Source of the DNA: a virus
Lineage: Duplodnaviria > Heunggongvirae > Uroviricota > Caudoviricetes
Reading direction: 5' to 3' (one strand)
Virus record (IMG/VR): IMGVR_UViG_2778261152_000005
Span: 1 to 57,958 of that record
Length of the DNA stretch: 57,958 bases
Numbering within the stretch: the first letter of the stretch is position 1; each line of letters starts with the position of its first letter. Made by a program: the position numbers and the translations under genes. This document shows positions 11,856 through 35,968 of the stretch, in pieces. A model generated the notes under the pieces. It saw only the letters and a list, made by a program, of their open reading frames with translations, searched no databases and was not told the DNA's origin.

Positions 11856-11876
11856 AGTTTTCTCCTTCTCCTGTTA

Positions 11877-16680: not shown

Positions 16681-16897
16681 AGAGCTGAGCCTCTTTACGA
16701 CGATCTTCTTTAATTTTGAAATACAAATTGGTCAGATAAGTAATCAGGCCAAGGACAATACTGGCCAGAACCCCGATAGCTGCCCACTGGCTAGGGCTGA
16801 CCTTATCGAGTAGCTGTAGTAACCAATAGCCGCCGCTACCAAGAGAAGTTACGTAGGAAGCGCCCGCCGCTATGTCTGAATGGTTGTTCATCCTCAT
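16661..16897 (-). CDS. Holin (phage 21 S pinholin-like)
   Basis: 78 aa, …[48 protein letters not shown]… closely resembles the S21 pinholin from memory; overlaps endolysin start. Confidence 0.75.
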
Positions 16898-16955
16898 GCC
16901 TCACCCCCGAGGGGAAATGTGTAAGTATTGGGGGTTGAGGTTAAGACAACGATGC

Positions 16956-16970
16956 GGTCGGAATCCTGAC
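16956..16970. promoter_or_regulatory. Copy a (imperfect) of the GGTCGGAATCCCGACC palindromic motif, upstream of the holin gene
   Basis: GGTCGGAATCCTGAC about 60 bp upstream of holin start. Confidence 0.4.
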
Positions 16971-17051
16971 TATCCAATATGTTCACCCGGATCGAAAAAT
17001 GCTACTCTTTGTTTTTATATAACTTATGTTCAATCCATGGCGAGCTAAACT

Positions 17052-18041
17052 ATGAACCGTATTGGCTGGATCTCATTAACTAGAGTAATAGCAGTAACAT
17101 TTATCGTAATGCTGCATTCTGCCTCATTCTATTTCAATAATTTTGATATTGGTGTTTTTGGCTGGGAAGTTGGGAATCTTGGTAATGCGGTTAGTAGATG
17201 GGGGGTTCCAGTTTTCATTATGCTATCAGGGGCTTTATTACTAAATAATAACAATTCGAATGACTACGCCTCTTTTTACAAACGCAGGCTCTCTAAGATA
17301 CTTATACCACTTATTTTCTGGTCTATCTTTTATTCTGCGATATGGCTTTTCCAGAATAAAGGTGACGCCACTATTTACGAAGCTTTAATAAATATTATAA
17401 GTGGACATCCGTTCTATCATATGTGGTTTATGTATATGATTCTTGGACTATACGCATTTACACCTTTGTTCAGGAAAATTGCATCTGTAATAGAAGATAA
17501 AGAAGCAACTTACTTAATCACCACTGTATTTATGCTTTCTGCCGTATGGATAAGTAATAAATACATAGCTGATGCTCATGATCCATTGTGGTTTTTCTGG
17601 TTCATTCAATACATTCCGTATTATTTTGCGGGGTATTATATTTCAAAATCATCTAGAAACATAAAGCCGACTCTTCTATTAATTGTAACGATTATAACCG
17701 TAGCAGCCACTTTTATAGCCACACATTACGCCTCGGTACAGTTTGGTAAGACTCAATACTTCTACGAACCGTTATCCCCTTTCATTATTATAATGTCATT
17801 GTGTGTATTTTGTTTATTCAAAAGGTGGAATTCAGGATTCTCCGACTCTCTCGCAAATTTAAGTTTAGGTGTTTATTTAATTCACCCTTTCTTTTTGCTG
17901 GCCTTCTTTAAGGTGTTTAAGGGGTTTGCAATGTCGTGGCCTCTTATGGGTTTTATTTGTGCGTGGATTATTTGCACAGTACTGTCTTTTGCTTCGACCT
18001 TCATTATCAAAAAAGTTAAATATTTAAATGTGATAGTGTAG
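17052..18041 (+). CDS. Acyltransferase family 3 membrane protein (O-antigen acetylase-like)
   Basis: 329 aa, multiple hydrophobic segments, N-terminal …RVIAVTFIVMLHS… typical of Oac/OafA-type acyltransferases; opposite strand to flanking phage genes. Confidence 0.75.
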   Translation: MNRIGWISLTRVIAVTFIVMLHSASFYFNNFDIGVFGWEVGNLGNAVSRWGVPVFIMLSGALLLNNNNSNDYASFYKRRLSKILIPLIFWSIFYSAIWLFQNKGDATIYEALINIISGHPFYHMWFMYMILGLYAFTPLFRKIASVIEDKEATYLITTVFMLSAVWISNKYIADAHDPLWFFWFIQYIPYYFAGYYISKSSRNIKPTLLLIVTIITVAATFIATHYASVQFGKTQYFYEPLSPFIIIMSLCVFCLFKRWNSGFSDSLANLSLGVYLIHPFFLLAFFKVFKGFAMSWPLMGFICAWIICTVLSFASTFIIKKVKYLNVIV

Positions 18042-18053
18042 TTTATTAATGAA

Positions 18054-18077
18054 GGGGGAGCAGATAACTCCCCCTTT
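18054..18077. terminator. Bidirectional hairpin terminator
   Basis: GGGGGAG-CAGATAA-CTCCCCC followed by TTT, between convergent acyltransferase and tail-fibre genes. Confidence 0.4.
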
Positions 18078-18093
18078 GGGTATTAGAAAGAGT

Positions 18094-20034
18094 TCAGACA
18101 AAATCAACTGCGGTATATCTAGATAAAAATCCACCCATACCCGAATATGAGATATTGGCGACCAAACTTACATCCGTAACGACAGTCGTAGAATTTATTG
18201 TCGTTGTGGATTTTTTTAATGTACCAGTCGCGGTTGTTACCTGCACAGCTACAGAACTAGCCCCCTGCTGGAAAACCTGCATATTGCCAATAAACCCACT
18301 ACCTTGCGCCATTCCAAATTTGCTGTATGCAGAACCACTCACTCCCATGTAGGGATAATGATATTTAGATAAATCGGCCTGCAATGAAACAGGATATGAG
18401 ATATTCACTGAATTTGCAGATGATAACATTGATAAATTACACCGCCAATGGATGTATTTACCTACTTGCCGGGCCTGAAGTGTATTTGTTACACTAGTGT
18501 TTAAATAGGTATTGTTTTTTGGAAAGTCTACCCATCCTGAATCGAACTGTTTAATTGGTGTCTTAATTGCAATCATCCCCCCGGCTAGAGCCCGAGGGCT
18601 ACCATCTGCACTTGGCTGAAGATATACGTCATCCCAAAGTAACTGAGCACTTCCCCCACCATCTAATGCGATGGCATGATGAAATCCTTCGTTTACACAT
18701 AACTCCTGTAGTTCAGAATATAAAATACCAAATGAAGATGATTGCCCTTGCACTTGAAGTATGCCGTAGTCTCCATTTGGGAAAACACCAAATACGGTTC
18801 TTGCGCTTATATCAGTTTGTGATGATACATCCTCATACGCCACACCGTTTTTAACAAGCAAATAATGCCAACCAAAACAACACCATGCACCTTCATTGAC
18901 ATAATCTTGTGCCGTCTTATTATCTGTATATGCCGCAATGGAAACTGAACCATCTTTCAATATCAATAAAGAGTAACGTCCATGTGTTTCTGTTTCGCCG
19001 CCGTCAAAATCCTGGTATGCAACCCCCCCTGATATCTGCAGCCCCCATGGTTTATACCCAACGCCATCTGTAATATTTGAATGCCAACCATCGCCATTAC
19101 AAATAGCAGGAGCTTTACTTTTTGAAGCATTCTCTGTTATTGTCATCGGCTGAACGTACATCACGCCAGATGAAAAATAAGGAGTATTACCATACTCCTT
19201 ATTAATATTTTGGGAGCCTTTCGGCACTGTAATAACGTGATAATAAACGCCACTGGAATGGATTTTCCTAATGCACTGTGATGACCCACTGCCATTCGTG
19301 ATATATCCACTTAAATTTTCAATCCCAAGGCTCAATTCATCAAGTTCATCCTGAACCGTTGTTCCATCAACAGTTCCAATTTTTGATGCCCCCGTTGGCT
19401 TTGCCAGTTCAATCATTACATCCGTTGCGGAACCTGACTGCGGTAAAACAGTTATCGGTTTACCCGCAGCGTTAAATGCCAGTAATTTGTTCGCACGTTG
19501 ATCAACTGGCGGGAGCACGTCAACATAGCTTTCTGGTACCCGAAGTGTGCGGTTTAAATTATTCTGCCCGGTTTGCTGAACATAGCGCTTTGTTGCCGCA
19601 TCCTGGTCGTTAACCGGATCGGCAAGCTCGGAAATCCGGTACCCTTCGGCATCAAACGGCCCACCAAACAAAGGTCGACGCAGTGCCAGTCCCAGATGGA
19701 TCCCATAACGTTGAATAGCCATCCATAGACGGTCGAAATCTTTATTTACCGTATCTGCAAGCAAGTCCCCGTTATCCTGATAATCAGTTAATCTGTAACT
19801 GGGGACAACACGTTCAATCATTACAACCGTGCCGGTAGCCGGAGCCGTGAGGAACGTAACATCACCGCCACCCACATTGCCTACGCCGGAGACAGAATAA
19901 CCGGACGTTAACTCCACACCGTTAAGTGTGACCTGAATGTCACTGGCACTGATAACATAAAACTCGAAAGGAAAAACGGTCGTCAGACCGTTGGCGTTGT
20001 AAATAATATAGGGCGTCTGGTTAGGTACCGACAT
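18094..20034 (-). CDS. Tail fibre / tailspike with T7 gp17-like N-terminal adaptor domain
   Basis: N-terminus (…GLTTVFPFEFYVISASDIQVTLNGVELTSGYSV…VVMIERVVPSYRLTDYQDNGDLL…) parallels the T7 gp17 N-terminal domain; remainder distinct. Confidence 0.7.
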   Translation of the reverse strand: MSVPNQTPYIIYNANGLTTVFPFEFYVISASDIQVTLNGVELTSGYSVSGVGNVGGGDVTFLTAPATGTVVMIERVVPSYRLTDYQDNGDLLADTVNKDFDRLWMAIQRYGIHLGLALRRPLFGGPFDAEGYRISELADPVNDQDAATKRYVQQTGQNNLNRTLRVPESYVDVLPPVDQRANKLLAFNAAGKPITVLPQSGSATDVMIELAKPTGASKIGTVDGTTVQDELDELSLGIENLSGYITNGSGSSQCIRKIHSSGVYYHVITVPKGSQNINKEYGNTPYFSSGVMYVQPMTITENASKSKAPAICNGDGWHSNITDGVGYKPWGLQISGGVAYQDFDGGETETHGRYSLLILKDGSVSIAAYTDNKTAQDYVNEGAWCCFGWHYLLVKNGVAYEDVSSQTDISARTVFGVFPNGDYGILQVQGQSSSFGILYSELQELCVNEGFHHAIALDGGGSAQLLWDDVYLQPSADGSPRALAGGMIAIKTPIKQFDSGWVDFPKNNTYLNTSVTNTLQARQVGKYIHWRCNLSMLSSANSVNISYPVSLQADLSKYHYPYMGVSGSAYSKFGMAQGSGFIGNMQVFQQGASSVAVQVTTATGTLKKSTTTINSTTVVTDVSLVANISYSGMGGFLSRYTAVDFV

Positions 20035-20054
20035 GGCTAGAACCTCTGGCAGGA

Positions 20055-21665
20055 TTAATAATCGACTTCGACCTCATGGTCTCCGTCACTTAACTGCCAA
20101 TGTTCCCGCGACTGTCCGGTCGGAATCCCGACCACTTTACCGATACGCACAGGCGTTGCACTAACCGCCCCCGCACCTGAATCAATGAAATCGTCTGGCT
20201 GTGTTGTCAGCGCCGGGTTGAAGTCACGCATTTGATCATACATTGGGCCATCCAGAACATCTGAGTGTGCCCACAAGAAACTAGACGAAAGCGGCGCTTC
20301 AAATGCGTCGAGGATGCGCTTCTGCTTATTCGTAACGCTGAATTCCTCCCTGACACCGCAGCCAGTTCCCTTAAGCGCCTGACGCAACAGCTTACCGGCG
20401 AATGACCCGGGGCCGTTTACTTCCACGCAGACAACGGGGATCTGATATTTAAGGACAAGCTCTTTAATCTGTATTACCTGACCGCCAGTTATTTTGTCAT
20501 TGGAGTCGAACTCCGCAAGGTCGCCCGTTAACGCCTGACAGATATGCCAGTAGAGGTGGCCTCGCGCATCCGTGAGTACCAGAGAAAACGCTGAAGCGTC
20601 GGCCTTCACCTTACCTGTTGCAACATCCCACCAGGCAACGGCACCGACAATCTGCACGTTACCAAGCCACATCGACGCGGTGCGGTTTGCATAGCGAATT
20701 TCCGGATGGATGTTGTACTCCCGGATGCGCTCAGGATCGAGACGAACGTCGCCAACGGGCTTGCTGTGCAGCTGATACTGGCTATCCCACTCGTTGACCG
20801 TACGACATTCTTTTCGACGCAGCTCTAACTCGTCATGATCAAATCGCTCAGGCCAGGCGCATCCGGCATAGAAATCAATAACCGTATCCGGTGCCGCAGC
20901 AAACTCCACGCCGTCGGCAGTCAGCTTATAGTCAACGTCTTCGACCAGCAGGCTGGCCGCTTTATGGATCCCTGCAAAAACGTACTCTGGCCGGAACGGA
21001 ATAACATAGCGCAGCTGCGTGGCGTCTTTCGCCTCGATGCGCTTTTCTTTCTCAAACAGCTTTATGGTCAGACAGTCAGCGCCTGCCGATTCCATTTCAT
21101 CGTAGAGGCTGTCATGTGTGTGCGGCGTACCAATAAAAAGTTTTCGCCCGCCGGGGATCAGGATGTGAGTCTGCTCGCTCAGGCGATAACGCAACTTTTC
21201 TCGCGCCTCCGGCGTCTGAATATTGCCCGGGACTTCCACGTCGTCATTCTGGCACTCGTTAGCGCGGGCGCCGGTGACGTTCGACAGGATACCTTTTGCG
21301 AACATGCTGGCGTTACGCATATCCAGCGAACCATTAACCCACCATTGTTCGACCGTGCCGATCCCGTCGGGCAACATGCCTTTTGTCAGGGGGTGGTTGC
21401 GTAAAACGTTCTGTGTATCGCGGCTGGTTTTGCGCGCTGTGGAGTCCGATTCTGACTGGTGCAGAATACGGTACTGGCGATCGCAGTAGTATCGCCAGGC
21501 ATTATAGACGCCCAAAATAGTGGATTTACCGAAACCACGGAAACAGCGAAGCACCGCGAGGTTTCCGCGATGCTCCAGCCAGTGGCAGGCTTGATAATGG
21601 CAGTCCGGAACGTCCCAGTTCATCCGCTCCGCCCACATTAAAAAGAAGGCGAGGAACGAAATCAT
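20055..21665 (-). CDS. Terminase large subunit
   Basis: 536 aa; Walker-A-like …RGFGKSTIL… near N-terminus; follows a small terS-like gene. Confidence 0.7.
   Translation of the reverse strand: MISFLAFFLMWAERMNWDVPDCHYQACHWLEHRGNLAVLRCFRGFGKSTILGVYNAWRYYCDRQYRILHQSESDSTARKTSRDTQNVLRNHPLTKGMLPDGIGTVEQWWVNGSLDMRNASMFAKGILSNVTGARANECQNDDVEVPGNIQTPEAREKLRYRLSEQTHILIPGGRKLFIGTPHTHDSLYDEMESAGADCLTIKLFEKEKRIEAKDATQLRYVIPFRPEYVFAGIHKAASLLVEDVDYKLTADGVEFAAAPDTVIDFYAGCAWPERFDHDELELRRKECRTVNEWDSQYQLHSKPVGDVRLDPERIREYNIHPEIRYANRTASMWLGNVQIVGAVAWWDVATGKVKADASAFSLVLTDARGHLYWHICQALTGDLAEFDSNDKITGGQVIQIKELVLKYQIPVVCVEVNGPGSFAGKLLRQALKGTGCGVREEFSVTNKQKRILDAFEAPLSSSFLWAHSDVLDGPMYDQMRDFNPALTTQPDDFIDSGAGAVSATPVRIGKVVGIPTGQSREHWQLSDGDHEVEVDY
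20118..20133. promoter_or_regulatory. Copy b of the GGTCGGAATCCCGACC motif, inside the 3' end of terL about 85 bp upstream of the tail-fibre gene
   Basis: Perfect 16-nt palindrome. Confidence 0.45.
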
Positions 21666-22000
21666 TTTTCGCCTTTCTGAAGGCGTTTGATAATGGCGGC
21701 CGCTTCACGTTCAGCCTCATTGACCCGCTGACCCAGTTCGAATTCTTCATCAACTTCACCGGGTTTCGGGGGAACTCCGCCGCGTGTATGCATACCAATA
21801 AGAGAATGCACCTTAATCAGCAGCGTCAGCGAAGCCGCAGCGTTCTTCTTGTCCCAGTAGCGGTCGCCGCGCTCCTGCTTTGTCAATGCATTGACGCGTT
21901 TATTACCGCCAGCCCAGTTGTCCGGGTCGGCTTCTTCGAGCACCACGTCAGTGAGTTTATCGCTCAGAGCAGTAAGGCGTGTTTTGTAATCCTGATGCAT
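21662..22000 (-). CDS. Putative terminase small subunit (T7 gp18-like position)
   Basis: 112-aa ORF overlapping terL start by 4 nt. Confidence 0.4.
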   Translation of the reverse strand: MHQDYKTRLTALSDKLTDVVLEEADPDNWAGGNKRVNALTKQERGDRYWDKKNAAASLTLLIKVHSLIGMHTRGGVPPKPGEVDEEFELGQRVNEAEREAAAIIKRLQKGEK

Positions 22001-22045
22001 AAAAAAGCCCCGTAGTGAATACAGGGCTATGATGGCGCGGGTTTG

Positions 22046-22061
22046 AGGTCGGAATCCCGAC
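22046..22061. promoter_or_regulatory. Copy c of the GGTCGGAATCCCGACC motif, upstream of the terS-like gene
   Basis: Perfect palindrome in the 64-bp intergenic gap. Confidence 0.45.
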
Positions 22062-22064
22062 CGA

Positions 22065-24971
22065 TTACCGCATACCAGGATCTACCTGATTTATCAGCGG
22101 CGCAATCCAGAAAAGATTGTTCCCTGGCAGCAGGGTACGCACGTTGTGCAGAACACGATCACCAGCATCGCCATTCAGCACTCCAGCGGTCACGTCGGTG
22201 ATGGTATCTAACAAGCCAAACGTCGGGCCGAGTGCGGAACCGATAAAACCACGGCTGGCGTAACGCGACTGTGTGCCGGTGCCGAGCAGCGCTCCCAGCC
22301 CGACCATACCACCGGAAGCTTTTTCAGCCATGTTGTTGTATTCCATTAGTGGGCCGAGAATGCCGGAGCGGTCAACACCCTCTATCACCAGTTTTTCAGG
22401 CGACCAGTCAACCTCACGCCCGTTAGCGGTTTCTTTCAGTGCATACGTCAGCGAGCCCAGCCCTATCTGGAATGCGGTACCGTAGTAAAACTGCGCCGAC
22501 CCTTCCTGTAACCCGCCCAGCGTTGCACGGTTGTATGACGCCGTAGCAAACGATTTAAACTGGAAAACCGTTTTGCCAAGCGGTGTGCTGGCCCACAGAG
22601 GCGTATCGCCAATGCCGGGGGTGATAACAGTATTGTTAACGTCTTTCAGCACAGCAGACTGAAACACGCCGGCGACATGCTGATCGTCCCATTTTTCAAA
22701 ATTACCAATATGCCAGCCGTCAATCACCTCGCCGTGCTTCTGAAATTCAGTGCGGATACGCGCGGCCATATTGTCGTTAATGCCGAGCTTCGCCAGGCGA
22801 CGGCCTGCGAACGAACCGGAAAGAATACCGTCAGACGTGATCATGCCGTTAACCGATTTGTTCATATCGTCGAAATGCCCCATCAGCGTGAGCTTGCCGA
22901 ACATATCGGTAACGCGCTCCATACCGGCTTCCACCGCTGTGGTACGTGCGGAACTGTCCACCAGATCGCCCATCGTACGCGCGCGGGTATGCAGTATTGT
23001 TTCCAGCCCCACGGCCATCTTTTTCTGTTCGGCTTTACTCGCAACCCATGCAGGGGATTTGGTTATCATAGCGCCATAGCCGCGCGTAACATTGCGGAAT
23101 CCGTTCACCATCACGCCACGCGCCAGATCAGGTATTGCCGACACAGTCATACCCCCCAGTTTGGTGGCAAAGTTAGCACTGCGCAGAAACGCACCGGCGC
23201 GAACAAAGAACGACGACGGATCGTCGGGCATACCGTACGTACCGACAAGGCGGTCGCGCAACGCAGTAATATCGCGCAGGTCGTTATCGCGGGCTTTTGC
23301 CAGTTTTGCCTGATCTTTGGGGCGGGAACGCATCAACGCGTCGTACTCGTCCTGGATATCCTTAAGCTGTTTTTCCAGCGTCTTGTTACCAAAAGTGCGG
23401 GTCAGCTCAACCTCTGCGGACGCTTCGCGAATATGGCGCTGCAGGACATAGTTGGCGTCACTCTCCAGGTAGTCTTTCATCAGGCGATCGGGAACACTGA
23501 GCGTACGGCCTTTGGTGCTGCCAGCAGATTTGACCATAAACACATTAGCGAAATCCTGCGGGATTTTGGCACCCACAATTTTGTTAATAGTGGCGTCCGC
23601 CGTAATTTCGGCCTCTTCTCTGGACATGGTTTTTTCGCCGCGCGACCACCAGTCAACCAACATGTCGCGGAATTTATCGCGCTCGTTGACGATTTTCCCG
23701 ACCTTGTACACGCGCGGGAAATAGCTGGTCTGCCCGATGGCCTTCAGTTCTTCATCCGGTGGTAACAGTCCTAGTTTCTGCTGTGCCACCTTCACACGGT
23801 TAACGACGGTGCGCATTGCCTGCGCCGTTTCCTGCACTACCGGGTTGGCATGTACATCACCGCTGCGCATGGCGCTACCCACTTCTTCACGGAACGACGC
23901 AAAACTCAGGTCACCGCCGTCAGCCTTATATTTTGCATACGCCTGTTTGTTGGTCACGACTACCGCTGCTTCTTCACGGCGCCAGCCGCGAACGCGGGTT
24001 TCCGCTGCAATGGGTGTTTCAATACCACGCGCATTCCCCTGGAGCGTGAAGTTATTCTCTGCCAGCTCCAGCGCTGTACGGCGTGCTGTTTTTGAAGGGG
24101 ATTCTATCAGGCGGGTGATCGGCGTCAGGTAACTGCCTGCCTTGCGCGCGGCCTTGCCGAATGGCCCCCCCGCAACCGGGGTTAAATCTTCGAGTGTCGC
24201 TTCGCGGATCCGCGCTGCGCCCACACTCCCCCCATCAGGAAGCGAAGCCGCAGCGGTATCCACCGGCGATGTTACGCTCATATTATCGAGCGCCTCCGCC
24301 ACTTCCCGCGTGGCCGCAGTGCGAACAGAAGGTGAGAGCGCCGCGCCAGCAGCAGCAAATACGCCACTCATCAACGCACCAGCTGCGACGTGGGAAGCAC
24401 TTTCGCCCCACGTACGAGTGATCTGCTGGTTATTCAGCGCAACTTCGCTCGCTGCGGTTGCAGCCGCACCGATTGCAACCTGTGACGCAATGCGCGCTGC
24501 CGCACCGCCCTGTGCGCCGGGGATAAACATAGATGCGACGGTAACCGGGTCGACAACGCCCGCAGCAATACTGGCTAACACACCCTCACCGCCAGCCTCA
24601 GAAAGCACGCGGCGGTCTTCGTTTTCATCGTCAATCTGCTGTTTCAGCCAGGCTGTTTCTTCCGGAGAGCGGGAATCCGCAAACGCCGCCCCCCATTGTT
24701 CGTACCCGTGCAGCTCGTTTTTATCCGTATATGGGTTATACCCTTCAACCGGCTCAAACTGCTTAGCCGGTCGGAACATCTGACCCAGCAGGTTATTCTG
24801 GCGGAATGCAGCGCCCCACACCGACGGCTCGTCCTGCTGAGGTGCCGGGTTGGTTCCTTCTGGCAATGGGACATCAAATCCGGATGATGCCGCCAGCACA
24901 TTACCTGCCGGGATGAATCCGTTATTCAATTCTTCAGGAGTGGCGTATACCGGCATTATTCTGTGCTCCAT
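22065..24971 (-). CDS. Internal virion / ejection protein (968 aa)
   Basis: Large ORF in the T7 gp15/gp16 position; start may be at a downstream Met. Confidence 0.5.
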   Translation of the reverse strand: MEHRIMPVYATPEELNNGFIPAGNVLAASSGFDVPLPEGTNPAPQQDEPSVWGAAFRQNNLLGQMFRPAKQFEPVEGYNPYTDKNELHGYEQWGAAFADSRSPEETAWLKQQIDDENEDRRVLSEAGGEGVLASIAAGVVDPVTVASMFIPGAQGGAAARIASQVAIGAAATAASEVALNNQQITRTWGESASHVAAGALMSGVFAAAGAALSPSVRTAATREVAEALDNMSVTSPVDTAAASLPDGGSVGAARIREATLEDLTPVAGGPFGKAARKAGSYLTPITRLIESPSKTARRTALELAENNFTLQGNARGIETPIAAETRVRGWRREEAAVVVTNKQAYAKYKADGGDLSFASFREEVGSAMRSGDVHANPVVQETAQAMRTVVNRVKVAQQKLGLLPPDEELKAIGQTSYFPRVYKVGKIVNERDKFRDMLVDWWSRGEKTMSREEAEITADATINKIVGAKIPQDFANVFMVKSAGSTKGRTLSVPDRLMKDYLESDANYVLQRHIREASAEVELTRTFGNKTLEKQLKDIQDEYDALMRSRPKDQAKLAKARDNDLRDITALRDRLVGTYGMPDDPSSFFVRAGAFLRSANFATKLGGMTVSAIPDLARGVMVNGFRNVTRGYGAMITKSPAWVASKAEQKKMAVGLETILHTRARTMGDLVDSSARTTAVEAGMERVTDMFGKLTLMGHFDDMNKSVNGMITSDGILSGSFAGRRLAKLGINDNMAARIRTEFQKHGEVIDGWHIGNFEKWDDQHVAGVFQSAVLKDVNNTVITPGIGDTPLWASTPLGKTVFQFKSFATASYNRATLGGLQEGSAQFYYGTAFQIGLGSLTYALKETANGREVDWSPEKLVIEGVDRSGILGPLMEYNNMAEKASGGMVGLGALLGTGTQSRYASRGFIGSALGPTFGLLDTITDVTAGVLNGDAGDRVLHNVRTLLPGNNLFWIAPLINQVDPGMR

Positions 24972-27676: not shown

Positions 27677-27678
27677 GG

Positions 27679-28146
27679 TTATTTACTCCCTGCTTTTTTC
27701 CAGCCGTTATATGCCGTTCCGCCTGCGGATAGCAGGGAACTACCAGCGTTAATGTATCCAGAGGTAGACGCATTATTCCCACTGATACGATCGGCCTGAG
27801 CCTGTGCATTTAGTCGGGCGCTCTGATTCGTACCATTCAAAATGGTCTGATACGCATCCTGCTCAGCATCACCAACGATGTCAGACTGAATACGCAGCGC
27901 AGTCCCTTCGCCGGTATCAACTCCGGACGCCGCTAATGATGCATTCGCCGCCGCGGCCTGTGCACGCCCGGCCTTGCGAATACGTTCAGCTTCAACTTTC
28001 GCCGCAGCTTTAGACGCCTCTGCATCGGCTTCAGCCTGAGCAGCCTGGTAATTAGACATTTTCTTCTGCTGTTGCCCGCTGTAAACCGCTCCGCCAGCAG
28101 CAAGGACAGAAGACGCAACAAGAGCAACCTCAACACCAGTACACAT
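27679..28146 (-). CDS. Putative internal virion protein (155 aa)
   Basis: N-terminal hydrophobic segment then Ala/Gln-rich region; T7 gp14-like position. Confidence 0.4.
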   Translation of the reverse strand: MCTGVEVALVASSVLAAGGAVYSGQQQKKMSNYQAAQAEADAEASKAAAKVEAERIRKAGRAQAAAANASLAASGVDTGEGTALRIQSDIVGDAEQDAYQTILNGTNQSARLNAQAQADRISGNNASTSGYINAGSSLLSAGGTAYNGWKKAGSK

Positions 28147-28148
28147 CG

Positions 28149-28598
28149 TTACACCTCTTTGGAATAAAGCAGACCGGTACGCGACAGACCGAGACGTGAA
28201 TACAAATCACCGGTGCGCTCTTCATGTACGCCTGTGGTGATACCCATATTGATAAGCACGGCGCCGTGTCTTTCCGCCCATGCAATGAATGATTTCGCAA
28301 GCCGCGGGGCAGCTGTGCCGCCGCGGTACTCAGGCGCAATAAAAAGCCCGTATTCAAACGCCATTAGCTGACGGCTAAACCATTGCTCAGCGATCCCGCC
28401 GGCCAGCCAGCCAATTACAGCACCTTTTTTTTCGGCCACCAGCAGACAGCCAGCAGGTGATGAAATAAGGGTGCGGGCGAGTTCAGCGCATTTTTCTTCA
28501 TCGAATGGCGAATTCTGTGAATAGCGGGACTCGATATACATCCGGGTTCCCAGTTCGATCAGCGCCGGGATATCCCCGGCCGTTGCGTTACGTACCAT
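28149..28598 (-). CDS. GNAT-family N-acetyltransferase within the virion module
   Basis: Start taken at internal Met (28598); …GAVIGWLAGGIAEQWFSRQLMAFEYGLFIAPEYRGGTAAPRLAKSFIAWAERHG… GNAT-like; track ORF extends to 28805. Confidence 0.6.
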   Translation of the reverse strand: MVRNATAGDIPALIELGTRMYIESRYSQNSPFDEEKCAELARTLISSPAGCLLVAEKKGAVIGWLAGGIAEQWFSRQLMAFEYGLFIAPEYRGGTAAPRLAKSFIAWAERHGAVLINMGITTGVHEERTGDLYSRLGLSRTGLLYSKEV

Positions 28599-28599
28599 G

Positions 28600-30588
28600 T
28601 CAGCCCCCGTTACTGGTGAACGTGAAAATAATTGCGAGAAGGTGGAATGGCAGCGGCTGGCGCTGCTGGATAAGCAGGGTGTCTTCCCCACGCTCCCAGC
28701 CGAGTTTCCCCCAGAAATGATCGCCGGTGAAAAGTGGCGCTGGCTGGTTGAGAATTTTCGGACCGAACCGGCGGAACGGAATGACCTGGCCGTTGCACTC
28801 TGCACCAGTAGTTTCGAGAAAACGCATCGTCACTTCGCTCGTACGTTTCTTCGCGTTCTGGGTGGTACCTTCGGTAGTGGAAACCTCAGGTGATAGCGTC
28901 TCAATCGTACTTTCAAAGTGCAGGCCGATCTCAACGCTTTTTGCCTGGCGCGACAGGGTTATTTGACCTGATGAAACTGTGTATTGGGGCATAACAGCGC
29001 CGTCTGCCACCACATCCACAACCTGCCCCTCGAGGTGAGCAAGGCCTGACCACGTGGCGGAACCGGCGCTACTGCTGCCGGTCACTGCGGCATCGGTATA
29101 AAGATTGCTGTCGAAAACCTCAACATACCGAACGGTCTGGCCGTTTATCTCACGACGAACAATGGCATAAACCACGTCGTCGGTATCGGATGGAATTGTC
29201 GCCACCGATTCGAACGCCCCCTCAGTGACCTGACGTGACCAGGCAATAACATCCTGAGCGCGATCGATAGCCATCGTAACCGCAACACCATCAGCCCGAA
29301 CCATCCAGATAAATGCATCGGGTTGTTGCTGATATGCCATGTCCAGCACGCCACCAGATGTGATGTGCTCGGCCAGCACTGTCATGTCGTTAGCGGAATA
29401 GGAAACAAAGCTGTCGGGGTCGTACGCTACCGCATAGAGCTTACGACCCGCACGCTGCACAAACATGATTTCGGTACCAACGCGCACCGGACGGATCCCA
29501 TTACATCCGTACGGGCTTGGGTTTTTTACCGAAATATTTGTCGGTGTGATGGCCGCATCGTTACCCGAGGTGATCGTAAACTCACCGCCATAGGTCAGCG
29601 CAATAAGGGTATTCATCTGCGCCAGATGCACAATCGGGTTGAGCTGGTCAGAAGACAGCGTAAAGCTGATTGCGTCATCATCTTCGGTACCAATCTCAAA
29701 CGACAGATAAACGCCCGTCTCACTCCACCAGATTGTTTGCGGGTATTTGGGTGAACCCGCCAGCACAAGCCGCTGCTGGTAAAGCGTCACCGCGCCCGGG
29801 TAACCAAATTCATCTGTCCAGACCGTGTCTTCACGTGTCCACGCGCCCGGAGAGGCCGCCTGAGTTGCCGATAAATCGCTACGGATGGTACCGACGGCGA
29901 CCTGCGCGCTGGTGATGCTTTTTATCAGTACCAGTCCTTCGTTAATTCGCACGTACGAACCAACGTCCTGAGATACCCAGCCGGTTCCGGTAAAAGGGGG
30001 GCTGGAGTTATCACCCGGGTCTTCATCGCTCAAAGTGAGCGTGATTTCAGAGCCCACAAATTCTTTGACGGATGGCTTACACCATTTTTGCGGTGTATCG
30101 CGTACCTCGTCGAAAGGTTCAACGATGAACGGCGCAGGCTCAAGCACCCAGTCAGTTTGACCGCGTCGCTGCAGGCGGTAAGGTTTCACAGACTGATGCA
30201 CCAAAAACATGGTGTCAGCACCCTGGACATAATTCACAGCAGGCAACATATCAGCGGTATAGGGACTGGCTATTTCATACGGTGTGTTGTCACCGTTAAC
30301 CAGTTGCTTACCGTTCTGGTAAATGCGCATATAGCCGTCGCCAAACTCCAGCATATAAGCCTGAGAGCGATTGAATACGTAGGGGATAAGCCGGGATTTT
30401 TTATTGCCATACTTGGTAGCCGCCGCGAATCGGGTGCCGGGCCTGCGGATTACGCCCCCCTGCACCACCACCACGGCGTTTTCGATAATCTTTGCGCCGT
30501 TGGCATAGCGGGCAATATCAACACGCCCCATAAGACGCGGAGATACTTCCCCGGCGGTGAAATTGGTTTTAATGAGGTTCGCGCGCAT
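28600..30588 (-). CDS. Tail tubular protein B-like (T7 gp12 position)
   Basis: About 660 aa; start chosen at Met 30588 one base from the tubular-A stop; track ORF extends to 30651. Confidence 0.55.
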   Translation of the reverse strand: MRANLIKTNFTAGEVSPRLMGRVDIARYANGAKIIENAVVVVQGGVIRRPGTRFAAATKYGNKKSRLIPYVFNRSQAYMLEFGDGYMRIYQNGKQLVNGDNTPYEIASPYTADMLPAVNYVQGADTMFLVHQSVKPYRLQRRGQTDWVLEPAPFIVEPFDEVRDTPQKWCKPSVKEFVGSEITLTLSDEDPGDNSSPPFTGTGWVSQDVGSYVRINEGLVLIKSITSAQVAVGTIRSDLSATQAASPGAWTREDTVWTDEFGYPGAVTLYQQRLVLAGSPKYPQTIWWSETGVYLSFEIGTEDDDAISFTLSSDQLNPIVHLAQMNTLIALTYGGEFTITSGNDAAITPTNISVKNPSPYGCNGIRPVRVGTEIMFVQRAGRKLYAVAYDPDSFVSYSANDMTVLAEHITSGGVLDMAYQQQPDAFIWMVRADGVAVTMAIDRAQDVIAWSRQVTEGAFESVATIPSDTDDVVYAIVRREINGQTVRYVEVFDSNLYTDAAVTGSSSAGSATWSGLAHLEGQVVDVVADGAVMPQYTVSSGQITLSRQAKSVEIGLHFESTIETLSPEVSTTEGTTQNAKKRTSEVTMRFLETTGAECNGQVIPFRRFGPKILNQPAPLFTGDHFWGKLGWERGEDTLLIQQRQPLPFHLLAIIFTFTSNGG

Positions 30589-30589
30589 G

Positions 30590-31153
30590 TCAGAACCTCG
30601 ACTCATACGTTGGGTAACCGCCAAGCTCTTCCGGTGGGTCTTCCTGACCATCGATGGCTTTTGCCTGTTTGAGCAGGAATGCGGCCTCTTGCGCCAGGCT
30701 ATCGCGCAGGCTGGTTGAGCCTGTCACCGCGTATGCCAGCTTAGACTGCATCATCATTTCAGCTACATCTACCAGCGCAGGACCCCAGGTAGACTCATCT
30801 TCATTGCGGAAGATATAGCGCAAACGAATCACATCAACATTTGCCAGCAGCCGGCTCCCTTCAATTCGATAATCGATATTATCCTGCTGTTCACCAATGG
30901 ACAGGACGCGAATATGGTCACCTGGTAAAGAAAACTGATAACCATATCCAAAGACAGGCGCTGCGCTTACAGGGGACAGTACAACGCGTTTTATTGCGCA
31001 GTTCCACGGGTGAGCACGGAGTAATTTATTACGGACAGTGGGGTAAAGGTTGGCGCAAAGACGGGCATGATCCGTGTCTTCGTCGAAATCATTTATCGGG
31101 TGAGCACCCAGCGCCAGAAGTGCGTTTGAACAGATAGAGACACTCGAAGTCAT
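30590..31153 (-). CDS. Tail tubular protein A-like (T7 gp11 position)
   Basis: 187-aa ORF directly downstream of capsid gene and terminator. Confidence 0.5.
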   Translation of the reverse strand: MTSSVSICSNALLALGAHPINDFDEDTDHARLCANLYPTVRNKLLRAHPWNCAIKRVVLSPVSAAPVFGYGYQFSLPGDHIRVLSIGEQQDNIDYRIEGSRLLANVDVIRLRYIFRNEDESTWGPALVDVAEMMMQSKLAYAVTGSTSLRDSLAQEAAFLLKQAKAIDGQEDPPEELGGYPTYESRF

Positions 31154-31170
31154 GGCATAACCTCAGATGA

Positions 31171-31196
31171 AAAAAGGCCGGGGGTACCCCCCGGCA
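31171..31196 (-). terminator. Rho-independent terminator after the capsid gene
   Basis: Minus-strand GCCGGGGGG-TA-CCCCCGGC stem followed by CTTTTTT, 15 bp after capsid stop (analogous to T7 T-phi). Confidence 0.55.
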
Positions 31197-31210
31197 AACA
31201 CACCAGCGGC

Positions 31211-32122
31211 TTAAACAATAAAATCGATGGCGACGACTTTTTTCTCGTTGGCACGACCAGCACCATAAGACGCATCAACAGAGATCTGAATGGTGTTGTT
31301 TTTATCGCGACGCGGACCGATATCGACGTTGTACTCAGCGCCGGTACCGAAATGCACGGCAGACTTACACCACGCAGCTGCGGTTTTAGTGGTTACGGCT
31401 GGGTCGCCATCGGTCACAGAGTCCAGTTTTTCGTATGCCAGCCAGTTAAAGCCCAGCCACTTGGAGGACACCGCACCTTCCTGCAGCATTTTTACAGCCA
31501 TGAAGTCAGCAGAGGTCAGCGTTGTGTCGCTGAGGATCTGCGTCAACATGTCGGCGTTGTACGTCATGTACAGTTCTTCGCCGTTCTGTTCATCGCACTC
31601 ATTACGGCGGAACATTGCTTTAGCGGCAATCAGCTTGGCTTTGGTCATGCCAGTGCCGCCAGCAACGATTTTTTGCTCGGCAGGGAGCGCAACAGGGGCA
31701 AACGCACCGCCGCTGGACGTTTTACGCAGCACGGTATCGAGCAGTGCGCGATACACAACATCATCTTTTTTGCGGTTGGCGGCCGCCAGGGTGAGCTGCA
31801 GATATGGCCCCTGCGGGTCAGCCAGCAGCTTACGCAGGTCACGCTTTTCAACGGGAACGAATACGCCGTAGTCAGCCATCAACGCATTACGGGTGCCAGC
31901 CTCTGGCAGGTCCCATACGGTGTCACCGAAACGCGTGGTAATCTGCGTCATTTCGATGGTACCCATATCGTTGATGGTGAACGCTTCACCGGTGATCATC
32001 CCACGGTCGTGTACCGCAGCCTGCAGGCGGGAATCCTTCTGCTGCGCGGCGATTTCGAAAGAATCATGAAACTGCGTGATAAACGCAGCGGTGATCATGT
32101 TCTTATTGGCATCAAATGACAT
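31211..32122 (-). CDS. Major capsid protein (T7 gp10-like position)
   Basis: Start at Met 32122 with GGAG Shine-Dalgarno; 303 aa; flanked by scaffold upstream and a strong terminator downstream. Confidence 0.6.
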   Translation of the reverse strand: MSFDANKNMITAAFITQFHDSFEIAAQQKDSRLQAAVHDRGMITGEAFTINDMGTIEMTQITTRFGDTVWDLPEAGTRNALMADYGVFVPVEKRDLRKLLADPQGPYLQLTLAAANRKKDDVVYRALLDTVLRKTSSGGAFAPVALPAEQKIVAGGTGMTKAKLIAAKAMFRRNECDEQNGEELYMTYNADMLTQILSDTTLTSADFMAVKMLQEGAVSSKWLGFNWLAYEKLDSVTDGDPAVTTKTAAAWCKSAVHFGTGAEYNVDIGPRRDKNNTIQISVDASYGAGRANEKKVVAIDFIV

Positions 32123-32271
32123 AACAATCACTCCAGAAAATATCGCCTGCTGGGTTGTCGGTTGCCCGGCCCGATTAACACAATGCGCGTGGCGCTTACG
32201 CACTGCGGGAAAATTCAGTTATCCGGCGTCCCCGCCGGGCTGGTTGTGGGGAGATTGTTAGCGAGGTGTGC

Positions 32272-32287
32272 GGTCGGAATCCCGACC
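32272..32287. promoter_or_regulatory. Copy d of the GGTCGGAATCCCGACC motif, about 150 bp upstream of the capsid gene
   Basis: Perfect palindrome immediately downstream of the scaffold-gene terminator. Confidence 0.45.
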
Positions 32288-32292
32288 AAATG

Positions 32293-32320
32293 AAAAAGCC
32301 AGCTTGACCCGCTGGCTTTT
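32293..32320 (-). terminator. Hairpin terminator after the scaffold gene
   Basis: Minus-strand AAAGCCAGC-GGGTCAA-GCTGGCTTT stem followed by TTCATTT. Confidence 0.45.
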
Positions 32321-32340
32321 GGTGTTGTCGTCGTGACATG

Positions 32341-33183
32341 TCACGCTACGGTTTGGCCGCCGTAACGCTTCTGGTAGTACGCTTTGACCTGCGCGGATAC
32401 CCGTTCGTGATCAGCGTGTTTCGAGTCCATGTAGGCCGGGGATTTCATCAGGTCGCGGATGGTCTGCTGCTCTTCGAGATTCACATCACCGCCAGCAGGC
32501 GCATCTTCCTGCATTTCAGCGCCGACTTTAGCCAGCATACGGATAACCATCGGATTATTGCCGATCTCGTCAATGCGGCCTTTATCGGCGTCATCAGCCA
32601 GGGAATTAAACGCACGGAAAGCCAGACCGATGTTTTGCTTAAACTCTGCATCGGTCTTCCACACCTCACGCAGCTGTGTGGTGGCAGACTGTGAATCCAG
32701 CTCAGCGGCACCGCCTACCAGCTCAGGAGCACGCTGTGCGTATTCACCCAGGATGAAGCTCATCTGGTCGTTGGTGATGCCTTTAGCGTGCGCAGTTTTC
32801 ATAAAGCTCTGCATGCGCGGGTCCGCTTTGAACTCTTCCCAGTTGAATCCCTCGACCTCTACCTTAGGCGCATACTCATCTGACGTTTTCGGCGGCGCGT
32901 CGCCGCTACCCATGCGTTTTTCAAGGTGAGTGTAATTTTCCGCCAGTTTGCGGGCAGAGCTTTCAATACTGAGCTTTCCGTCTTCGCCCATAACGCGGAA
33001 TTTCTCAGGTATCCAGTCATTAGCCCCCGGCTCGCCTGCGCCTGCGCCGGTGCTGAGCAGAGAATTGCCAGAAGGTTCACCAGTACCCGGATTATTGCCG
33101 CCATCGTCACCACCTCCGTTACCGCCGCCCGGCTGTTCTGCGCCCGCTTCTGCGTTCATGAATAAGTGTTTAAGCTTCCACAT
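32341..33183 (-). CDS. Scaffolding protein (T7 gp9-like position)
   Basis: 280 aa, Gly/Asp-rich acidic N-terminus, between portal and capsid genes. Confidence 0.5.
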   Translation of the reverse strand: MWKLKHLFMNAEAGAEQPGGGNGGGDDGGNNPGTGEPSGNSLLSTGAGAGEPGANDWIPEKFRVMGEDGKLSIESSARKLAENYTHLEKRMGSGDAPPKTSDEYAPKVEVEGFNWEEFKADPRMQSFMKTAHAKGITNDQMSFILGEYAQRAPELVGGAAELDSQSATTQLREVWKTDAEFKQNIGLAFRAFNSLADDADKGRIDEIGNNPMVIRMLAKVGAEMQEDAPAGGDVNLEEQQTIRDLMKSPAYMDSKHADHERVSAQVKAYYQKRYGGQTVA

Positions 33184-33403
33184 CGTCTTCTACTCCATCG
33201 GCCTTGTTGATTTCGCGCAGGATGTAATCCAGTACGGATCGCTGCCCTGCCCTGTAACACGTTTCGCGGTCGCCCTCGGTACCGCCCGGGACATATGCCG
33301 CACGCCCAAAGCGGCGGGTTAATTCTTCCAGCACCTGAGAACCACCAGGCATTTCTTCGAAAATGCGCTTAAAGTCCTGAGGCGTAGCCTGTTTTATTCT
33401 CAT
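33170..33403 (-). CDS. Hypothetical small protein (77 aa)
   Basis: Overlaps portal stop and scaffold start. Confidence 0.35.
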   Translation of the reverse strand: MRIKQATPQDFKRIFEEMPGGSQVLEELTRRFGRAAYVPGGTEGDRETCYRAGQRSVLDYILREINKADGVEDDVEA

Positions 33404-35025
33404 TGGTTACCTGCCAGTCGTTGTCCTATTGCCGCGCCTGCGGTCTGTCCTGCTGCTCCTGCTGCCTCAGTGCCCGCCTGCATCATGAGTTGCTGCTGTG
33501 CGGCCTGCTGTTGTGCTTTCTGACGTTGGTCGCGGAGATCCGCCACCGCATCGGATGAGCGAATAACCTTCGCCGGAACGCCGAGCGCATCAGCCACAAC
33601 GCGCGTGGCCTCGTCGGTATCGATGAGATCAACAACGTCCTGGCTGATACCAGCGAGATTTGCCACATTTGCGCCGAGGCGCTCAATAGCAGTTACGTCT
33701 TCCAGCTTCTGGGCACGCGCCAGCGGGGAGATGTAACGCACGTTGAAATTGGCGTTTTGCAGGCTCTCAGGCGGCGGGGAGAAAACGCCAGCGCGGAAAG
33801 CGATGCCAAAGCAGCGCACCACAAGCAACTGGAGATATTCAGCCTGGAAGCGGCCATACACCGGGCCAAGCAACTGACGAATCAGTGCTACGCGCACGTG
33901 AACTTCGGTGGCGGTCATGGCTGGCCCATCCTGCGGTTGCAACTGGTCCGCCATCATGATTTTGCGGATTGATGCCTGCAGACGTTCTTCAGCGGTGAAA
34001 GCAACGTTGAAATCTGCGCCAGTCAGCAACGGTTTCATGCTGTCGGTGCTGTTCGCCACGATGATACGACGCGGGCCGACCTTGACCGTACGCGGGTTTA
34101 GTACGCCGTCGTCTTCGGCAATCCACATGCCGGAGATAGCCAGATCCTGCGCAGCTTTCTCCATGCGTTTGGTTTCGTTCAGCTCTTTGCAATCTGGCAG
34201 CGCGTCGTATACCGGTCCGATGCCGTAGGAGCCACCAGGGATTTTCATCCAGCGCGGAACGCAGCACGGGAATTCGTGATAGCCGGATTCGCGCACCACC
34301 TGCTTGTTAGTCACGTCGACGTTGAATGACGCAAAGCGCATGTTCTTCGCCAGACGGGCATCGACCATGTAGGTTTCGCGCGGGAAAATGCAGTGCAGGA
34401 AATCAAATTTATCGTCGGGCTTTTTCTTCGCCGCGTCGCGGATCTTCTCGCTGACCTTGTCCGCGCCGAATTCTTTGATGGCCTGTTCTGCGGTCAGCTG
34501 GTAGCGGCGGTATATCGTGTCCACAATGCCATCCTTGCGGGTGGACGTGACATAGCACTGCGCCAGCGGCCACTGCTGGAAGGTGTAGCCGCCCTCGTCA
34601 CGGTCCTCGTCGATGTACAGGACGAACCAGCCAGCGCATACCACGTCGAGGTTTGCCTCGTAGCCCTCTGCGTCAAAGTTGGCCGCATGGATGTTTTCCC
34701 AGACCAGCGTTGCGCACTCTGACAACCAGGCTTTGGCGTCGTCCGGCAGCGATTCGCTGTCGAGGTTCAGCCATTGCGCGTTCGCCGGGGTCATGCCGGA
34801 CATGAGCGCAGAGGCCAGCATGCGGGCGCTGTCGGTGGCGGTACCGTCCAGTAGCTTCGCCACCTTGTGTTTTGCGCTCTGAGCGTCGAGCACTTCATCA
34901 GAGAATCCCGCGCCGCGCAGCGGATAGGTGTAGTCATAGCACTCGCGCCAGACGCTTTCATGCTGCTGGCGGTTGGCCTTCAGCGTGTCGGAACGCCTAA
35001 TCAGCTTAACGGCGAGTTCATCCAT
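33400..35025 (-). CDS. Portal (head-to-tail connector) protein
   Basis: 541 aa, size and position match T7 gp8; Gln/Ala-rich C-terminus. Confidence 0.6.
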   Translation of the reverse strand: MDELAVKLIRRSDTLKANRQQHESVWRECYDYTYPLRGAGFSDEVLDAQSAKHKVAKLLDGTATDSARMLASALMSGMTPANAQWLNLDSESLPDDAKAWLSECATLVWENIHAANFDAEGYEANLDVVCAGWFVLYIDEDRDEGGYTFQQWPLAQCYVTSTRKDGIVDTIYRRYQLTAEQAIKEFGADKVSEKIRDAAKKKPDDKFDFLHCIFPRETYMVDARLAKNMRFASFNVDVTNKQVVRESGYHEFPCCVPRWMKIPGGSYGIGPVYDALPDCKELNETKRMEKAAQDLAISGMWIAEDDGVLNPRTVKVGPRRIIVANSTDSMKPLLTGADFNVAFTAEERLQASIRKIMMADQLQPQDGPAMTATEVHVRVALIRQLLGPVYGRFQAEYLQLLVVRCFGIAFRAGVFSPPPESLQNANFNVRYISPLARAQKLEDVTAIERLGANVANLAGISQDVVDLIDTDEATRVVADALGVPAKVIRSSDAVADLRDQRQKAQQQAAQQQLMMQAGTEAAGAAGQTAGAAIGQRLAGNQ

Positions 35026-35028
35026 CAG

Positions 35029-35259
35029 TTACGCCCCCAGAGTGTTTTTCTGCTGCGCTGCCTGCGCGCCAGAGGACAGCAGAGAGCTGCCAGAATCAGC
35101 TGCACCCTCTGCACCACTGGCGAGAAGGGACGAGCCTTTCTTGCGCTTCTTGCGCGCTGCTGCATCTGCGTTTGCCGCTTTTGCCGCTGCGTCGGCAGCT
35201 GCATCCGCTTCGGCCTGCGGGTCGGTCTGTACGACCTTAGGTGCTCCACCTCCACACAT
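35029..35259 (-). CDS. Hypothetical small Ala-rich protein (alternative frame 35025-35255 also open)
   Basis: Two overlapping small ORFs; frame choice uncertain. Confidence 0.25.
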   Translation of the reverse strand: MCGGGAPKVVQTDPQAEADAAADAAAKAANADAAARKKRKKGSSLLASGAEGAADSGSSLLSSGAQAAQQKNTLGA

Positions 35260-35271
35260 AGCGATCCCCTC

Positions 35272-35691
35272 TTAGCCCGGAACGTGCCAGCCGTGCTCAG
35301 TCAGAACGGGCTTACCCGTAACCGGCTGGCGTTTGCCCTCGTCGTTCGTCACGTAGCCCAGCGGCGCGGCAGGCTCCGCCGTGGTGGCTTTTTTGACGAG
35401 CTGGAGGAATTCGATATTGTCAGTGAGCTGCTGGTCAGCCAGGTCGGTGTACCCCAGCGTTTCAAAGCGGGCGATGATGGCCGCGCCCTGCTCGTTGATG
35501 GTACCCAGCAGAGTATTGCGCTCAGTGAGCGCGGCATCGTCCAGCAGGGTAGAAACGCGCTGCTGGATAACTTCCTGCTCAGCACGGGGCTTCTCCTGCG
35601 TTACGCCTTCACCGGTGGTGTCTGAAATCAGGTCTGCGCCCGTTGCGGACTCCTGCCCGGGGACTTCAACAGTTTTCTTCTGTCGTGCCAT
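35272..35691 (-). CDS. Hypothetical protein, first gene of the structural operon (139 aa)
   Basis: Start at Met 35691 with AGGAG 10 nt upstream; the longer track ORF would run through motif copy e. Confidence 0.4.
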   Translation of the reverse strand: MARQKKTVEVPGQESATGADLISDTTGEGVTQEKPRAEQEVIQQRVSTLLDDAALTERNTLLGTINEQGAAIIARFETLGYTDLADQQLTDNIEFLQLVKKATTAEPAAPLGYVTNDEGKRQPVTGKPVLTEHGWHVPG

Positions 35692-35739
35692 TGTGGTGGC
35701 TCCTGTGATGATTGAGCCGTAAGTGTGAAACGAGGTCGC

Positions 35740-35755
35740 GGTCGGAATCCCGACC
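35740..35755. promoter_or_regulatory. Copy e of the GGTCGGAATCCCGACC motif, about 50 bp upstream of the first structural gene
   Basis: Perfect palindrome. Confidence 0.45.
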
Positions 35756-35968
35756 AAATGGAAGATTTGTTAAAAAACGGCCTGATTTAACATAATGTAC
35801 GTTATCGGCACCGCGCGATCGGCACTCGTTACCGATTTAGCGTGAAGAGGTTATTTGTTGCGGTTTGCTGGCGGGAAGGGACGAAAAATGACTGCATAAA
35901 TCGTGCATAAAACAGGGCGGTTTTTGCATAGTGTTTTTAACCGATGAACGCCCTGTTTTTGCAAGTTT

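Follow-up and report, generated by a model that had tools for sequence, protein, structure and literature searches.

Five repeated dyad sites at a fixed distance from -10-like hexamers suggest activator-dependent late promoters in a temperate T7-like prophage

We analysed a 57,958-nucleotide (nt) stretch of viral DNA (IMG/VR record IMGVR_UViG_2778261152_000005, positions 1 to 57,958; hereafter the window), which holds, from about 15.8 to 50.6 kb, a temperate podovirus prophage with a late module of the T7/BPP-1 type. Ahead of its late genes a 16-bp imperfect dyad recurs five times, each time followed at the same distance by a -10-like hexamer. These five sites are probably late promoters (P1 to P5) that would be used by the host sigma-70 RNA polymerase and would depend on an activator, a helix-turn-helix (HTH) protein of 91 amino acids (aa) that would bind the dyad. 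The promoter architecture, its conservation, and its synteny and co-occurrence with the HTH gene can be read directly from the DNA. The region concerned, the candidate activator gene and the predicted promoter parts are as follows.

15785..35691, minus strand: late region that P1 to P5 would serve, excluding the plus-strand acyltransferase gene at 17052-18041.
35969..36244, minus strand: gene of the 91-aa XRE-fold HTH protein, candidate late activator; last gene of the cro-primase early operon.
35740..35755, minus strand: predicted P1 activator site GGTCGGGATTCCGACC, an exact match, upstream of the first structural gene (ATG 35691).
35722..35727, minus strand: P1 -10-like hexamer CACACT, separated from the site by 12 nt; predicted start near 35715.
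32272..32287, minus strand: predicted P2 activator site, an exact match, upstream of the capsid gene (ATG 32122).
32254..32259, minus strand: P2 -10-like hexamer AACAAT; predicted start near 32247.
22047..22062, minus strand: predicted P3 activator site, an exact match, placed directly behind the stop codon that ends the gene of the 968-aa internal virion protein; terS-like ATG at 22000.
22029..22034, minus strand: P3 -10-like hexamer CATCAT; predicted start near 22022, in the 5' arm of a terminator hairpin.
20118..20133, minus strand: predicted P4 activator site, an exact match, in the terL codons for V-G-I-P-T; tail fibre ATG at 20034.
20100..20105, minus strand: P4 -10-like hexamer GAACAT, also within terL coding sequence; predicted start near 20093.
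16956..16971, minus strand: predicted P5 activator site, variant AGTCAGGATTCCGACC with two mismatches, upstream of the holin gene (ATG 16897).
16938..16943, minus strand: P5 -10-like hexamer TAACCT; predicted start near 16931.

Read along the minus strand, where all the neighbouring genes lie, the motif is RGTCRGGATTCCGACC. Its plus-strand form, GGTCGGAATCCCGACC, occurs in four exact copies in the window (at 20118, 22047, 32272 and 35740), and no exact copy is expected by chance (100 shuffles of the window). According to an earlier note on this DNA, a perfect palindrome occurs five times. A genuine repeat is present, but only four copies are exact, the one at 16956 being GGTCGGAATCCTGACT with two mismatches, and the palindrome is imperfect: GGTCGGAATCCCGACC is symmetric at 14 of its 16 positions, with 6-bp arms GGTCGG and CCGACC around an asymmetric AATC centre. 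The positions given for the copies hold, save that 22046 should be 22047. A position-weight scan of the window, built from relatives, recovered these five sites only, in the same orientation throughout. The motif precedes the start codon of the first structural gene by 49 nt, of the capsid gene by 150, of the terS-like gene by 47, of the tail fibre gene by 84 and of the holin gene by 59, a range of 47 to 150 nt that agrees with the 50-150 bp upstream of minus-strand late genes proposed before; the copy at 20118 does lie, as had also been noticed, within the 3' coding end of terL (20055-21665).

The distribution of the motif beyond the late region leaves practically no room for the idea that it is a host repetitive element or a chance repeat. 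Besides its absence from the shuffles, no copy was found in the roughly 23 kb of window flanks with up to three mismatches allowed. Two E. coli prophages found by similarity, one lying in dusA and 85% identical (L001) and the other with an unrelated lambdoid early region (L002), carry the motif at the same positions as the window although their flanks diverge, and no copy occurs in the chromosomal flanks of either. In its strict pattern the motif was present in only 10 stretches among 100,044 species genomes. Given this rarity and the lack of copies in chromosomal flanks, the motif is not a host repeat, and the common host repeat that the earlier note had named as grounds for refutation was not found. 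REP/ERIC-like repeats were set aside likewise, as dispersed chromosomal copies were found neither in the flanks nor in the species genomes.

The feature that the earlier note overlooked is the hexamer. Exactly 12 nt downstream of all five copies stands a -10-like hexamer whose second base is A and whose sixth is T (nAnnnT), from CACACT at P1 through AACAAT, CATCAT and GAACAT to TAACCT at P5, and on our best reading motif and hexamer together would form a complete promoter. A -10 hexamer is thus present and a -35 hexamer absent: the -35 positions fall within the motif, where GGATTC, GATTCC or GGGATT matches TTGACA at none or one of six positions. Consistent with this, a scan of the late region for sigma-70 consensus promoters returned none at the five sites and fewer matches in total than in shuffled sequence.

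The same architecture is found well beyond this prophage. Scanning viral contigs for GTCRGGATTCCGACC yielded at least 120 stretches, typically with 3-5 copies per 35-kb contig. Among the matches listed, 128 of the 154 unique instances (83%) have an nAnnnT hexamer exactly 12 nt after the motif, and the same pattern occurs at other offsets in 0-15%; the 128 always have a purine at motif position 1 and usually A/T-rich bases just upstream, and the remaining 26 begin with C or T and are scattered singletons. As this sample was gathered by exact motif match, the invariance of positions 2-4 and 6-16 in it is partly by construction, and we therefore drew seven homologues of the HTH protein without regard to the motif. 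Five of the seven have the motif within a few bases of the HTH gene stop codon or overlapping it; these five loci have a second motif before the capsid gene, and the spacing is always 12 nt, as it is in Yersinia phage YeP4. The independent loci vary at positions 3, 9, 10, 12, 15 and 16 (for example AGACGGGAATCCGACA, AGTCGGGAAACCGACA and GGTCGGGAAACCGAAC), and together with YeP4 they define the core GTCGG-N6-CCGAC. Some forms of the motif are perfectly palindromic (GGTCGGGATCCCGACC and GGTCAGGATCCTGACC). The motif family ranges from enterobacterial to high-GC prophages.

Individual promoters are conserved in place as well. In L001 and many other loci the P1 site is found at the same position, directly behind the HTH gene; among the loci compared, 39 distinct leaders have the motif ahead of the capsid gene; and the P5 variant is kept at the same position in L001 and L002, with 25 unique instances in total among the matches listed. 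Counting the motif genome-wide and comparing its placement in relatives, as had been suggested, thus gave five sites only, with both positions and 12-nt spacing conserved. In terL, the motif codons GTC GGG ATT CCG ACC have invariant synonymous sites and the adjacent R-I-G-K codons vary; in two lineages the motif has shifted to just past the terL stop codon. Within terL the motif therefore appears to be under selection as DNA sequence. In a Pseudomonas gingeri prophage (L142; 10335-10350 and 10426-11548), where the HTH gene stop codon overlaps the motif, the first late unit is the lysis cassette instead of the head genes, so the promoter set is modular.

Sequence variation among these instances also bears on whether the motif acts as RNA, that is, as a hairpin in late transcripts serving as a processing site or as a nut/boxB-like anti-termination signal. 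An exact copy does fold, with a 6-bp stem, a 4-nt loop and -9.5 kcal/mol; the copies at P2 to P5 would be transcribed by read-through, and terminators adjoin P2 and P3. Yet among the matches listed the sense RNA has A at position 1 in 40% and at position 5 in 26% of instances, each facing C (pairs 1-16 and 5-12), with essentially no compensating change; variants at positions 3, 15 and 16 break pairs too, and the fold of the conserved holin-promoter variant reaches no more than -2.1 kcal/mol. For RNase III the stem is much too short, the hairpin matches no Rfam family, and the fixed 12-nt spacing to the -10 hexamer would be left unexplained. The processing or anti-termination option offered by the earlier note is therefore not supported, and we regard it as very improbable. 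Anti-termination of the lambda Q type, which calls for a strong constitutive promoter with a binding element, or of the N type, which calls for a conserved boxB hairpin in the RNA, was considered separately and rejected on the lack of a -35 hexamer, the unconserved sense-strand pairing and the lack of a match to any anti-terminator family.

What travels with the motif is the HTH gene. In every locus that reaches far enough upstream and carries the motif at the first late promoter, a homologue (29-100% identity) lies immediately upstream of that promoter, and this synteny holds whether the replication module is of the VapE primase, RepO/DnaB, Rep_O/Toprim, DUF1376 or HTH_36 kind. No other non-structural gene co-occurs with the motif in this manner in the mosaic relatives. 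The protein family comprises more than 400 clusters from beta- and gamma-proteobacteria, all unnamed. Against Pfam, the 91-aa protein gave generic sub-threshold hits only (HTH_3 at 13.3 bits for a cut-off of 23, HTH_23 at 17.7 bits for 24.6), no NCBIfam model matched it and a PDB sequence search returned nothing significant. Its AlphaFold2 model has an HTH at residues 25-43, near the N terminus, in a Cro/CI-type fold; thus the four- to five-helix lambda-repressor-like fold is found in the model, and a Pfam HTH_3-type hit above threshold is not. As modelled, an XRE-type fold of this kind would fit a dyad site. The suggestion that a late phage regulator, for instance the HTH protein at 35969-36244, binds at the motif is well supported, as a prediction, by the fixed -10 spacing, the strict synteny and the XRE-type fold. 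As a separate observation, GTGCCGAT occurs twice in direct orientation, 14 nt apart, in the interval that separates the HTH gene from P1 (window 35812-35833, minus strand).

The link between protein and site is a prediction, and the late promoters might instead be recognised by something else, be it a different protein of the phage, an alternative sigma factor of the host or one of the host's regulators. GGATTC with a 16-nt spacer loosely recalls the -35 geometry of extracytoplasmic function (ECF)-type sigma factors, and the early operon encodes a PerC-like small protein of 72 aa (46638-46856). We nevertheless consider such a factor unlikely. The PerC-like protein and the other early genes were tried as regulators and dropped, as they do not co-occur with the motif in mosaic relatives: all of them are lost in mosaics that retain the motif and the HTH gene. 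Family searches revealed no sigma-like gene in the element, and the symmetry of the dyad, including its perfectly palindromic variants, suits a dimer rather than a sigma factor. The motif also stays constant across Enterobacterales, Pseudomonas, Burkholderia and Achromobacter, with the phage protein travelling along.

Under the activator-dependent model, each promoter would be built from a short run rich in A/T, the imperfect 16-bp dyad RGTCRGGATTCCGACC, a 12-bp spacer and a weak sigma-70-type -10 hexamer with the consensus nAnnAT. If the hexamer is assumed to lie at -12 to -7, the dyad would span -40 to -25 with its centre at -32.5 and would thus take the place of the missing -35 element. The 91-aa protein would be produced from the early lytic operon and bind the dyad as a dimer, and the bound dimer would recruit or stabilise the host sigma-70 RNA polymerase; that the protein binds and activates, that sigma-70 is the factor used and where transcription starts are predictions of this model. 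P1 would then drive the head genes, P2 the capsid gene and those for tail and internal proteins, P3 packaging, P4 the tail fibre and P5 lysis. Three terminator-like hairpins, after the scaffold, capsid and 968-aa protein genes, would split the late region into units, with P2 directly behind the first hairpin and P3 directly ahead of the third.

32293..32317, minus strand: terminator-like hairpin and T run, after the scaffold gene and directly upstream of P2; conserved in many loci.
31177..31195, minus strand: terminator-like hairpin after the capsid gene, with no promoter behind it.
22006..22028, minus strand: terminator-like hairpin that follows the P3 hexamer immediately and extends to the terS-like ATG.

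With the predicted P3 start in the 5' arm of the third terminator, P3 transcripts would lack that arm and escape termination. The arrangement of P3 hexamer, terminator and ATG (window 22001-22034, minus strand) is conserved in relatives. Conservation is also seen in the 5' leader of the capsid gene, of about 130 nt (window 32123-32247, minus strand; leaders in 39 loci), which contains a hairpin followed by GGAYAMC, in two copies; in the first hairpin, four base pairs show compensatory changes when 16 diverse leaders are compared. The leader, for which Rfam has no matching family, may be an mRNA-stabilising or translational operator element.

Several points weigh against activation by the 91-aa protein at these sites. 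The -10 hexamers are weak, with an unconserved position 1 and no extended -10. The centre of the site, at about -32.5, is roughly one helical turn nearer the -10 element than in classical class II sites, which makes the geometry of a contact with sigma region 4 uncertain. Two of the seven independent homologues reside in rearranged elements without the motif, and Acinetobacter phage TPWB-05 has a distant homologue elsewhere in its genome, with neither the synteny nor the motif. To these should be added the way the viral-contig sample was drawn and the PHROGs label of the protein family, 'transcriptional repressor', which is an annotation rather than a test.

That label, together with the repressors among the closest folds to the protein and the overlap of the site with the -35 region, a common operator position, would fit a dyad that serves as an operator through which the 91-aa protein or another phage protein represses the late promoters. 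Such repression is nonetheless distinctly unlikely, since a promoter with no usable -35 and a weak -10 offers little basal activity to repress. Moreover, the HTH gene sits in the lytic early operon right before the late genes, where lambda Q and other late activators are also placed, and the CI-type lysogenic repressor is a separate gene (39007-39681).

Relatives that lack the protein served as controls. E. coli phage vB_EcoM_APEC, whose portal protein is 42% identical, has neither the 91-aa protein nor the motif, and a k-mer search for an analogous late-region motif found none in this phage or in TPWB-05. Within its replication O gene, vB_EcoM_APEC carries four iterons TGTCGGAAAATCCGACA (21956-22040 of L128), whose arms GTCGG/CCGAC are identical to those of the late-promoter dyad, probably by coincidence. 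BPP-1 shares the genome plan of our element, the lack of an RNA polymerase gene and a small gene before the late operon, bbp27, in the place equivalent to that of the HTH gene. It differs in that its portal is only 28% identical and that it has neither a homologue of the 91-aa protein nor this motif. Instead, a motif of its own, GGGTGCCCGTGCCY, stands at a fixed 14-nt spacing from a hexamer (GGGTGCCCGTGCCY-N14-TAnnnT) in four copies before late gene blocks (26295, 24133, 20748 and 6186, minus strand), a likeness in layout to the promoters described here. In three of the four copies an ATG follows 7-8 nt past the hexamer, suggesting leaderless late mRNAs.

Among described systems, the late promoters of phage Mu are the closest; those proposed here would act much alike without belonging to the same family. 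Mu has four late promoters with -10 but no typical -35 hexamers, at which a 16-bp imperfect dyad, whose centre is at -43.5 and which overlaps the -35 region, is the site of activator C, a small phage-encoded dimer that acts with the host RNA polymerase (PMC2582627). Our element likewise has several late promoters with a -10 hexamer, without a -35 hexamer and with a 16-bp imperfect dyad. The dyad here, however, would be centred at about -32.5 as judged from predicted starts, some 11 bp nearer the hexamer, and its sequence is unrelated to that of Mu. The 91-aa protein has no match to the Mor Pfam family (PF08765, E <= 0.1) and is modelled with a Cro/CI-type rather than a Mor fold: the Mor/C profile asks for a C-terminal HTH and an N-terminal dimerisation bundle, and the HTH of the 91-aa protein lies near the N terminus.

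Activator sites also replace the -35 element at the lambda CII promoters (pRE, pI and paQ), at the pho boxes of PhoB and at the T4 MotA box, located at -30. Sites of this type lie about 10-12 bp upstream of a sigma-70 -10 hexamer, and the promoter is inactive without the factor. The predicted sites resemble them in lying on or across the -35 position. They differ from the CII and PhoB sites, which are direct repeats (TTGC-N6-TTGC for CII), in being inverted repeats; lambda CII itself has no sequence relationship to the 91-aa protein (hhalign probability 2.6%, no match to Pfam Phage_CII), and T4 MotA needs the co-factor AsiA, for which no gene was recognised here. The C proteins of restriction-modification systems and Cro/CI-type repressors share only 13-19% identity with the 91-aa protein, whose gene is not beside restriction-modification genes and whose putative targets are five dispersed late promoters rather than its own.

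With T7 itself the element shares the structural gene order. The predicted promoters ahead of capsid and ahead of tail fibre, along with the terminator-like hairpin that follows capsid, have parallels in phi10, T-phi and phi17 of T7. Unlike the T7 class III promoters, those described here have a sigma-70-type -10 hexamer and an unrelated motif. The T7-type promoter consensus is roughly 23 bp long, and the motif bears no relation to it. No RNA polymerase family matched any of the large open reading frames scanned (191 aa or more). The earlier description of a T7-like prophage lacking its own RNA polymerase, with a motif unlike the T7 promoter, thus agrees with our results.

The remaining content of the window is that of a temperate phage beside a second mobile element. 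The late region encodes small proteins, portal, Bbp19, scaffold, capsid, tail tube/nozzle, GNAT and internal virion proteins, followed by terS-like, terL, a T7-type tail fibre, holin, lysozyme and Rz. Between the tail fibre and the lysis cassette, an Acyl_transf_3 gene (17052-18041, plus strand) occupies DNA of about 38% GC; it is probably a serotype-converting moron, and in L001 the matching place also holds an acyltransferase. The early side carries cro, cI, a Prim-Pol/VapE primase, an operon of DUF2800, DUF2815, PolA, VRR-NUC and SNF2 genes, and an integrase. The Prim-Pol/VapE primase-helicase gene (36554-38721, minus strand), intact with 725 aa in E. coli B379 (L001), is split here near 38369 by a 1-nt deletion, which may mean that the prophage is replication-defective or may be a sequencing error. 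The interval between the primase and HTH genes (window 36370-36560) looks like a replication origin with iterons: its AT-rich stretch is flanked by GTAACCAC in nine copies, of which five are direct and four inverted. A 231-aa early protein (40377-41072, plus strand) contains about eight tandem 9-residue units, GSSGYDARI or a close variant. Next to the prophage, at 2922-14300, lies a second mobile element or remnant with DNA of 36-38% GC, including genes for a tyrosine integrase (2922-4286), a Dit-like tail protein (4367-5044) and a serine resolvase/invertase (13672-14229), and host molybdopterin and XdhC genes are found at 194-2332. Rfam (at gathering thresholds) and a tRNA scan found nothing in the whole window.

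A full-text literature search with the motif, its reverse complement and parts of either returned unrelated papers only, and searches on BPP-1-like and T7-like temperate phages and on late promoters turned up no account of it. Our observations are best explained as a familiar concept, the activator-dependent phage late promoter, realised in an undescribed system that is paired with an uncharacterised activator family. A broader view can be put forward only tentatively, as something possible but doubtful: the protein family and the GTCGG-N6-CCGAC site might constitute a previously unrecognised late switch, widespread in beta- and gamma-proteobacterial prophages, in which an activator at -35 replaces the contact between sigma region 4 and DNA, much as in sigma appropriation but without an AsiA-like partner. 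Such a switch might be the host-polymerase counterpart, or an evolutionary alternative, of the T7 RNA polymerase/promoter system within the T7 supergroup, with lineages such as BPP-1 carrying interchangeable regulator-motif pairs.

For temperate T7-like podoviruses without a phage RNA polymerase, the analysis offers a testable promoter model of how late transcription may be timed, with five predicted starts and a named candidate activator, and the model would extend to hundreds of prophages in Enterobacterales, Pseudomonas, Burkholderia, Achromobacter and Bordetella. As the HTH family has no Pfam or NCBIfam model, it also suggests a function for a widespread 'hypothetical protein'. The site stays nearly constant while the protein diverges to about 30% identity, which would make the pair attractive as a compact, portable activator/promoter module. 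Finally, the motif could mark late operons for annotation and help to judge whether a prophage is inducible.

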